In this document: in pieces, positions 4,888 through 5,287 of the stretch
Numbering within the stretch: the first letter of the stretch is position 1
Layout of the letters: each line of letters opens with the position of its first letter
Assembly: GCA_948676835.1 (NCBI GenBank)
Contig: CAPOZU010000004.1
Span: 99,149 to 131,148 of the forward strand
From: an uncultured Clostridia bacterium
GTDB taxonomy: Bacteria > Bacillota > Clostridia > TANB77 > CAG-508
Reading direction: 5' to 3'
DNA: 32,000 nt
Made by a program: the position numbers and the translations under genes
Notes under the pieces: generated by a model
Databases searched by the model: none
What the model saw: the letters and a program-made list of their open reading frames with translations, nothing else
What the model was told of the DNA's origin: nothing

Positions 4888-5033
4888 TGCAACTATTACC
4901 ATATTAATATTTATACCGTAAGGCTTTTACTAAATTTTAACAATTTCTGTAATATTTCTGTTACATATTTCGAAATACTAATAAATTATACTAAAAATAA
5001 CTAATATAGATTAATAAGAAAGGAAAGTTGCAG

Positions 5034-5213
5034 ATGATGGTAACGCCTGTAAGCCTTGACGCTGTACACACACACACACACACACACACACACACACACA
5101 CACACATTAATCTAATAGAAGAAAACAGAGTAGATAACATCTACTCTAAAACTGTTGCAAATAGACTTTTATTTAGCAAACAAGAACCATATGAGGGATT
5201 GTTTGTTAAGTAA
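5034..5213 (+). CDS. Candidate leader peptide / small ORF containing a (His-Thr) run encoded by the (AC)n microsatellite
   Basis: AGGAAAG (5021-5027) lies 6 nt before ATG 5034. The ORF reads through the repeat as H-T-H-T... and stops at TAA 5211-5213, inside the 3' arm of the 25-bp hairpin. The coding status is uncertain. Confidence 0.3.
   Translation: MMVTPVSLDAVHTHTHTHTHTHTHINLIEENRVDNIYSKTVANRLLFSKQEPYEGLFVK
5066..5106. repeat. Perfect dinucleotide microsatellite, (AC)20 plus A, 41 nt
   Basis: Read directly: uninterrupted ACAC... from 5066 to 5106. This is the only such tract in the window. Confidence 0.99.
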
Positions 5214-5228
5214 AGGTCTATTTTTATT
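5159..5228 (+). terminator. Long hairpin plus U-tract between the leader ORF and the adhesin start (candidate terminator/attenuator or RNase III site)
   Basis: Positions 5159-5183 pair continuously with 5199-5223. That is 25 bp including G-U pairs at 5167:5215, 5172:5210 and 5176:5206, around a 15-nt loop. TTTTTATT follows at 5221-5228. Confidence 0.5.
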
Positions 5229-5287
5229 GTGTTTGAAACTATATAAAGATTAGTAAAAATACAAAAGAATGGAAGGAAGAGATAAAA

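Follow-up and report, generated by a model that had tools for sequence, protein, structure and literature searches.

In Streptococcus gallolyticus, the number of GCAGA repeats in a leader open reading frame (ORF) of the pil1 and pil3 loci sets the distance between the leader stop codon and a stem-loop terminator (Danne et al. 2014, PMC3894217). Expression of pil1 and piliation are low when the leader stop is located at least 28 nucleotides (nt) upstream of the hairpin, and high when it is located just before, within or after the hairpin (PMC3894217). Analysis of delta-term, ATG* and 3-STOP mutants, together with mRNA levels, confirmed that antitermination at pil1 depends on ribosomes, and the system is also functional in L. 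lactis (PMC3894217). We examined a comparable arrangement in a 32,000-nt stretch of DNA from an uncultured Clostridia bacterium (assembly GCA_948676835.1, contig CAPOZU010000004.1, positions 99,149 to 131,148 of the forward strand; hereafter the window), in which an AC repeat within a short leader ORF and a long hairpin precede a giant surface-protein gene. The comparison of this locus with its relatives makes it probable that a slipped-strand, phase-variable leader-peptide attenuator controls the giant sortase-anchored adhesin. Termination at the hairpin, translation of the leader and the correspondence of its long frame to the ON state are points that we infer from S. gallolyticus pil1.

The window, whose composition is approximately 27% GC, contains a perfect period-2 array, (AC)20.5, at positions 5066 to 5106 of the plus strand (41 nt, 100% matches in Tandem Repeats Finder). 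In dinucleotide-preserving shuffles, (AC)5 was expected 0.03 times per 32 kb, and all 16 overlapping (AC)5 matches of the window are located within this tract, with none elsewhere in the window. Assemblies of the same locus were retrieved through an exact-protein look-up of the neighbouring RsmI. The tract comprised 16.5 units in L001, 20.5 units in the window, L002 and L004, and 21.5 units in L003, and the 506-nt spacer was 100% identical among these five assemblies apart from the AC number. A sixth assembly, L034, carried 17.5 units between identical flanks. Three of the alleles stem from the neighbouring ENA accessions ERZ14237736, ERZ14237740 and ERZ14237741, and the contig of one assembly breaks 14 nt past the tract. 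The occurrence of four AC lengths (16.5, 17.5, 20.5 and 21.5 units) between identical flanks indicates that the tract is hypermutable. Among other family members, (HT)4, (HT)5 and (HT)6 alleles were found in otherwise identical peptides (members of 90% clusters), and the family loci from metagenomes carried 6.5 to 18 AC units. In the minimum free energy (MFE) and centroid folds of the whole leader, the tract was predicted to be single-stranded. Based on the tandem-repeat analysis, the shuffles, the alleles and the fold, it was annotated as a phase-setting, hypermutable simple-sequence repeat (SSR).

The repeat is enclosed by the leader ORF. A Shine-Dalgarno (SD)-like AGGAAAG at 5021 to 5027 (+), read from the sequence, is separated by 6 nt from the ATG at 5034, and the repeat begins 32 nt downstream of this SD and ATG. 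In the long (putative ON) phase the ORF extends from 5034 to 5213 (+) and comprises 59 codons plus the stop TAA at 5211 to 5213, as seen from its translation, MMVTPVSLDAV(HT)7H-INLIEENRVDNIYSKTVANRLLFSKQEPYEGLFVK, and from the homologous leader ORFs P0001 to P0015. A gene call for the 59-aa leader is present in L002, and no Pfam family matched the peptide. Both other frames are closed immediately after the repeat by a two-frame stop trap seen in the translations at 5108 to 5118 (+), consisting of TAA at 5108 to 5110 in one frame and of TAA at 5113 to 5115 plus TAG at 5116 to 5118; its TATTAATCTAATAG-type motif is conserved in the family. Alleles of 17.5 and 20.5 units lead into the long frame, and those of 16.5 and 21.5 units into the short frames.

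Downstream of the trap, positions 5159 to 5183 pair with 5199 to 5223 to form 25 consecutive base pairs (22 Watson-Crick and 3 G-U), directly followed on the 3' side by the U-tract TTTTTATTGTGTTT. The fold of 5107 to 5240 had an energy of −43.1 kcal/mol, compared with −20.1 ± 3.3 kcal/mol for the shuffles (z = −6.9), and none of 200 shuffles was as stable. In eight homologs of this hairpin type, 96.5% of the alignment cells were paired and three pairs showed compensatory changes, whereas slid controls gave 37 to 54%. The hairpin with its U-tract (5159 to 5234, +) was therefore annotated from the fold, the covariation and the family as a putative attenuator, and the leader stop falls within its 3' arm. 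The short frames end 41 to 51 nt ahead of the stem. A simple terminator scanner gave no call for this hairpin, because the 15-nt loop exceeds the scanner's limit of 3 to 8 nt; stems were counted to a maximum of 20 pairs. The perfect 41-nt repeat, the leader ORF with its ribosome-binding site, the stops closing both alternative frames and the 25-bp hairpin that holds the leader stop had all been pointed out in an original prediction made without database searches, and each was reproduced here. The variation in repeat length among assemblies, which that prediction had proposed as a check, was likewise observed.

A second hairpin of 9 bp, which the original prediction had overlooked, was found in the fold between the repeat and the large hairpin at 5127 to 5147 (+), where it reads GAGTAGAT-AAC-ATCTACTC. 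Its GAGTAG...CTACTC stem is kept with varying loops in L005 to L008, L025, L027 to L029, L035 and L040, and persists even in distant family members of higher GC content. It may be a pause site for RNA polymerase or a protein-binding site. Two forms of antiterminator were considered and not retained. Pairing of (AC)n with the GU-rich tail was dropped because it would yield approximately 5 bp at most and the tract was unpaired in the predicted folds, and a mutually exclusive pairing of the small hairpin and the terminator found no support since both co-exist in the MFE structure. The search of Rfam 15 gave no match at gathering score in the window, and at E <= 10 it gave only chance-level matches in the region 4795 to 5300.

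According to the proposed switch, a transcript would begin upstream of 5034, and ribosomes would initiate at the SD and ATG (5021 to 5036) and decode (AC)n as (His-Thr)n. With every AC unit gained or lost at replication, the reading frame beyond the tract would be displaced by 2 nt. Two of the three phases would release the ribosome at the trap, 41 to 51 nt on the 5' side of the hairpin; the hairpin and U-tract would then form, and transcription would stop before the adhesin gene (OFF). In the third phase, represented by the alleles of 20.5 and 17.5 units, the ribosome would continue past the small hairpin, cross the 5' arm and halt at 5211 to 5213 in the 3' arm. A ribosome at this position would prevent terminator formation, and RNA polymerase would proceed into the adhesin gene (ON). 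The 28-nt rule of pil1, applied to the window, predicts the same states, with the stops of the short frames giving OFF and the stop in the 3' arm giving ON.

A search with the 59-aa leader protein yielded homologues in metagenome-assembled genomes (MAGs) and metagenomes, all of the form ..SLGAV(HT)n..NLIEEKRVDNIYSK..NRLLFSKQ.., and these relatives are all AC/(HT)n leaders of uncultured Clostridia. The first 600 aa of the adhesin found no relative among the GTDB genomes, and a DNA pattern was therefore used for a second scan. A frame-blind pattern search of the GTDB representatives, covering alleles of up to ~19.5 units, gave 19 true loci in ten MAGs named uncultured Clostridia or Clostridium, with up to four copies per MAG; the isolate labels of these MAGs include 'Lapin', 'iMGMC' and 'BRZ'. 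Because of this length limit, the species of the window itself is missing from the set. With a second, different frame-blind pattern, 45 loci were recovered from metagenomes, and several of the records concerned bear the label human gut metagenome. Altogether, the leader family exceeds 60 loci, which come from MAGs of uncultured Clostridia and from gut metagenomes, with several copies per genome.

In all loci with enough sequence, a large membrane-anchored or pilin-like gene was located downstream on the same strand. Among the metagenome loci whose sequence continued for 1.2 kb or more past the element, 26 of 28 had such an ORF. In the fetched loci of leader homologues the giant gene lies directly downstream and encodes up to 4313 aa. 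The giant genes with Pfam matches on record matched SpaA; several other products had no match or were not looked up. The pilin-like downstream proteins are 200 to 416 aa long and start with a KGITLIALI N-terminus. A 51-aa leader recurs unchanged in at least four different genomic contexts, and two of the contigs concerned belong to a single MAG. As for the copy of the family in L005, its contig NODE_3_length_270650 is likely, though not proven, to carry a locus of the window type too.

Some peculiarities of individual copies were also observed. L008 to L013, L023 and L030 share an identical leader and the first ~40 downstream codons (MEKKLKFKLNKKIGVFIILA...) behind at least four different upstream genes, and their contigs often end within the downstream gene. 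This pattern suggests an adhesin family that has duplicated recently or is recombining, and at which assemblies break. L074 carries two full AC-leader elements in tandem (9090 to 9148 and 9328 to 9386, both of 11.5 units) approximately 240 nt apart. In L016, L017 and L019, all from MAG JAZRRK01, GC-rich hairpins of the gtaggggcg...cgtcc type occupy two places, one between promoter and SD and one behind the terminator, and the leaders precede pilin-like genes.

The relation of the reading frame to the hairpin was compared across the family. In 19 of 20 distinct upstream sequences, the frame from SD and ATG was open to the repeat and entered it as GTA-CAC-ACA. The distance from SD and ATG to the repeat changed in steps of 3 nt, being 23 to 38 nt in the set of 20 sequences and 38 and 44 nt in metagenome loci, and the N-terminal residues have diverged although the start frame is fixed. 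Automatic hairpin finding with 100- to 200-nt windows gave spurious large structures, and of its results only the hairpins of the 57-114 type were trusted. In all 24 elements, one frame reached the hairpin, with a stop that lay at most 9 nt short of the stem or 33 nt beyond it and mostly inside. The remaining two frames of these elements closed 0 to 14 nt after the repeat, with three mild exceptions, and across almost the whole family the range was 0 to 16 nt. The hairpins fall into eight types of unrelated sequence, each directly followed by a tract of 4 to 8 T. The long frame reached the hairpin in 8/8 types, and the full pattern was present in 6/8; in the other two, one short frame runs for 26 or 43 nt. 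The hairpin loops of L015 and L027 carry insertions of 135 and 70 nt, respectively, and the long frame runs uninterrupted for 291 and 187 nt before ending in or beside the 3' arm. In some alleles of the L008 type, the loop stop TGA is changed to TGG and the ORF runs on through the 3' arm. The chance of such a pattern in shuffles was 0.05 to 0.18 for most single elements, with extremes of 0.006 (L015) and 0.37 (L031), and the product over the eight hairpin types, which are not fully independent, was approximately 2e-3. The consensus allele was in the long frame in 4/19 and 9/46 elements of the two frame-blind sets (~20%), and most copies were in a short frame. These results show that the frame-to-hairpin architecture, and not just the sequence, is conserved. 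The sequence-level expectations of the phase-variable attenuator in the original prediction all hold and are conserved.

The distance between leader and structural gene differs among the types. In the window, the adhesin ATG at 5288 lies 181 nt past the repeat, and 75 nt separate it from the leader stop. In L005 the hairpin is only ~40 nt from the ATG. The P0015 type (L035 to L037 and most of L041 to L085) makes up the majority of the metagenome loci, including several labelled human gut metagenome; its long frame (84 aa) crosses the terminator and ends in a TAATG that overlaps the ATG of a protein of 2800 to 2860 aa. Neither the ~40-nt gap of L005 nor the TAATG overlap of the P0015 type could accommodate a separate promoter. 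From this arrangement the leader appears to belong to the transcript of the downstream gene, and the P0015 type suggests translational coupling on top of antitermination.

Several points weigh against the attenuator interpretation. Its support at this locus consists of comparative genomics, drawn from assemblies, and of precedent. The covariation of the hairpin is modest (3/25 pairs from 8 sequences), and the chance calculations treat the family loci as more independent than they are, some of them being related by descent. No sigma-70 match of at least 10/12 was found upstream of the leader in the window, where the best match was 9/12 and overlapped the rsmI terminator. A weak promoter-like sequence, TTGAAA-16-AAAAAT, is located at 5233 to 5260, between the hairpin and the adhesin ATG, and could allow expression of the adhesin independently of the leader. 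The 25-bp stem with its 15-nt loop is far above the typical length of a terminator, and the hairpin could instead, or in addition, be a substrate of RNase III. Moreover, the adhesin is frame-split in every assembly of the species, so that the regulated gene may be defective. The original prediction had itself cautioned that transcription and translation are weakly coupled in at least some Firmicutes. The demonstration of the mechanism in the Firmicute S. gallolyticus answers this caveat; for the present uncultured clade the coupling would be carried over from that precedent.

The alternatives differ in what the ribosome position or the repeat would control. The same frame logic might act after transcription, through an RNase III or stability element or through translational coupling of leader and adhesin, and we regard this as unlikely. 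The AU-rich 25-bp duplex is longer than ordinary terminator stems such as that of rsmI (10 to 13 bp), the passage of the P0015 long frame through the hairpin to TAATG is the classic arrangement for translational coupling, and an RNase III-processed SSR hairpin in the 5' untranslated region governs the HMW1 adhesin of Haemophilus influenzae (PMC12721329). However, the tract of 4 to 8 T behind every hairpin type is the signature of an intrinsic terminator, the 75-nt gap between leader stop and ATG in the window is too long for coupling, and the experimentally solved analogue, pil1/pil3, works by termination. It is much less probable that the leader is an independent small gene, encoding a phase-variable His-Thr peptide with its own terminator, and that the adhesin is expressed from its own promoter beyond control of the repeat. 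Such a gene would fit the promoter-like site at 5233 to 5260, the ~190 nt between hairpin and gene in L008-type loci and the conservation of the SLGAV-(HT)n-NLIEEKRV parts of the peptide. Against it, the C-terminal half of the peptide is unrelated among the eight hairpin types, and its conservation coincides with the hairpin arms, which indicates conservation at the RNA level. In addition, the peptide lacks a Pfam family match, the element is always located 5' of and co-oriented with a surface-protein gene at more than 40 loci with differing neighbours, and L005 and the P0015 type have no space for the separate promoter.

We consider it very improbable that the AC repeat is just a microsatellite, neutral or selfish, that a duplicated 5' region of adhesin genes carries along and whose length has no regulatory effect. 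In favour of this reading, the leader has been duplicated at several loci jointly with the N-terminus of the gene behind it, and the consensus alleles are mostly in a short frame. In contrast, perfect tracts endure in the ~27% GC genomes of many species, they are accompanied by the fixed frame from SD and ATG, the two-frame trap and a frame kept open across insertions, and unrelated hairpins substitute for each other at the same position. These features are hard to explain without selection on the relation of frame to hairpin. The leader-peptide attenuator is the interpretation that we prefer.

The family also shares features beyond what a model of the pil1 type needs, namely the ..SLGAV-(HT)n-..LIEEKRV.. 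core of the peptide or RNA, the GAGTAG...CTACTC hairpin and the AGCCTTGNGGCTGT flank, which are conserved across species. Directly 5' of the repeat, the conserved AAGCCTTGACGCTGT (5051 to 5065, +) is kept in distant members. The family consensus of this 5' flank is AGYCTTGNGGCTGT, in which AGCC/GGCT may form a mini-hairpin, and it is present in almost all members. The conservation of AGYCTTGNGGCTGT is at the nucleotide level, and most of it was demanded by neither search pattern; the flank might affect slippage or the nascent peptide. As a tentative and rather doubtful extension, the three shared features would form a common sensor or regulator-binding module (a pause or arrest element, or a site for a protein or small RNA) that coordinates the choice among adhesin loci or programs the slippage rate. 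If true, such a module would let these abundant, uncultured Clostridia of the gut choose among their adhesins genome-wide, combinatorially and possibly in tune with the environment.

On its 5' side, the regulatory region of the adhesin is bounded by the intrinsic terminator of the upstream gene, which was assigned as rsmI-like from its TP_methylase domain (Pfam). The terminator scan placed the stem at 4807 to 4833, followed by T8 (4807 to 4841, +), and reported it as a 10-pair stem followed by ATTTTTTTTG. Between this terminator and the leader, a block at 4905 to 4975 (+), ATTTATACCGTAAGGCTTTT...CTGTAATATTTCTGTTACATATTT, is shared with L005 and L006 and is kept there despite differing neighbouring sequence, so it is likely to be the promoter or operator region of the leader transcript. 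Distant family members carry 11/12 promoters of the form TTGACA-N17/18-TATAAT at 55 to 105 nt on the 5' side of the leader ATG, and the near-consensus promoters of the relatives sit 89 to 141 nt 5' of the repeat. A separate 22-bp palindrome, TTGCATGACATATGTGATGCAA, was noticed upstream of the leader at 4866 to 4887; its core, ATGTGATGCA, reappears upstream of the L005 and L006 leaders, and the palindrome may be an operator bound by a transcription factor.

The putatively regulated gene was delimited by ORFs, Pfam and its C-terminus to 5288 to 18575 (+), and its SD (GGAAGGAAG) and ATG, taken from the sequence and the ORF list, are located at 5271 to 5290 (+). The product has an N-terminal membrane or signal anchor, SpaA, Cna_B and MucBP domains (Pfam), and a C-terminal LPTTG with a membrane anchor. 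The original prediction had described a 13-kb adhesin gene. A giant LPXTG adhesin does start at 5288, but it is not a single gene in the assembly, being divided between two ORFs in different frames, 5288 to 14371 (3027 aa) and 14334 to 18575 (1413 aa, with the LPTTG end). The second ORF is in the +1 frame, and the split lies at 14322 to 14371, an overlap that contains a CGG codon. In a genome this rich in AT, CGG should be an uncommon codon. Two products are likewise called in other assemblies of the species, a first of 3027 aa and a second of 1411 aa (L086 and L087), and the adhesin homologue of L005 is one product of 4313 aa. The frame split could represent a fixed pseudogene or a programmed frameshift.

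Elsewhere in the window, a 227-aa ORF at 21050 to 21733 (+) is located within a 1-kb stretch of 51% GC in this ~27% GC genome, and its third codon positions, judged by eye, are GC-rich. It is equipped with an AT-rich, near-consensus TTGACA-N17-TATAAT promoter at 20968 to 20996, an AAGGAG SD and a terminator at approximately 21760 to 21787, and it matched nothing in Pfam, PHROG or Rfam. The exact 227-aa protein was found in the same Tex-to-MBL context in 20 contigs examined. This constant context shows that the ORF is not an assembly chimera, and it looks like a fixed foreign gene.

The AC tracts have practical consequences, in that assemblies break at them and gene callers list the leader as a 'hypothetical protein' in one phase only. 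If the switch operates as proposed, the commensals would vary their surface adhesins stochastically and combinatorially, with implications for colonisation, immune evasion and phage resistance. The ON or OFF state of each adhesin would then be readable from existing metagenomic reads as the number of AC units modulo 3.

Among known phase-variable systems, SSR contingency loci with the tract inside the gene are typified by the CTCTT repeats of Neisseria opa and the CT/AG dinucleotide tracts of Helicobacter pylori. The present family resembles them in slipped-strand frame switching, in the multi-copy surface family whose members have their own tracts, and in that most copies are presumably OFF. 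An in-gene contingency locus was nevertheless rejected, since the repeat is located 181 nt 5' of the adhesin ATG within a separate leader ORF. With the tract outside the structural gene, OFF alleles would yield no truncated adhesin, and the giant gene would by inference be left untranscribed. A switch by an SSR in a promoter spacer was also rejected, because the repeat begins downstream of an SD and ATG and the promoters of the relatives are located upstream of it.

The cwpV and flgB switches of Clostridioides difficile depend on site-specific inversion by a recombinase in the 5' leader and act after transcription initiation. The flgB switch is the subject of PMC5386303. The present locus shares with them a phase-variable clostridial surface structure governed through a 5' leader element. 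An invertible switch was excluded here by the finding of only weak AT-rich inverted repeats in the flanks and by the six collinear assemblies, which differ in repeat number alone.

Classical ribosome-mediated attenuators are represented by the E. coli trp leader, the pyrBI leader and the antibiotic-responsive leader peptides of Firmicutes; trp is also treated in PMC3894217. As in trp and pyrBI, the position of the ribosome on the leader ORF would decide on the terminator, and the pyrBI leader likewise crosses the terminator. Unlike in these attenuators, the position would be set by a heritable and reversible DNA length and not by the supply of an amino acid or nucleotide or by a drug, and an alternative antiterminator pairing was not evident in the predicted folds.

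In hmw1A of H. influenzae, the repeats form one arm of a hairpin, and expression scales with the repeat number (PMC12721329). Both systems have an SSR transcribed in the 5' region of the mRNA of a giant adhesin, together with a long RNA hairpin. They differ in that, at the present locus, the predicted folds leave the AC tract unpaired, repeats are absent from the hairpin arms, the tract is read in the leader frame, and the action would have a period of 3 units. An element of the hmw1A kind was rejected, as the repeat units are not a hairpin arm in the MFE and centroid folds.

The closest resemblance is to pil1/pil3 of S. gallolyticus. In both cases, an SSR with a unit that is not a multiple of 3 is located in a leader with SD and ATG, a terminator-like stem-loop precedes the structural genes, the repeat number sets the frame and thereby the place of the leader stop relative to the hairpin, the target is an LPXTG adhesin or pilus, more than one locus is present per genome, and the repeat number differs between strains. 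On the other hand, the unit is AC instead of GCAGA and sequence similarity is absent, so that the two are analogues and not homologues. The frames are also used differently: one of three is long here, whereas in pil1 the in-frame reading is short and both out-of-frame shifts are long. The hairpin of 25 bp has a predicted energy of −31 kcal/mol, compared with −18.7 kcal/mol in pil1, and the additional conserved small hairpin and the conserved repeat flanks are features of the present family. This family, known from sequence alone, covers many species of uncultured Clostridia and precedes giant adhesin genes as well as pilin-like genes. In the literature searched, attenuation by an SSR in a leader peptide is shown only for the S. 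gallolyticus pili; the mechanism itself is already known, and that literature contains no report of a multi-copy family of such leaders spread across abundant, uncultured Clostridia of the gut. With the present locus and its relatives, the mechanism would no longer be confined to the pili of S. gallolyticus. It would also operate with a dinucleotide repeat, and in a large clade of uncultured gut Clostridia whose genomes carry it in front of many giant adhesin and pilin-like genes.

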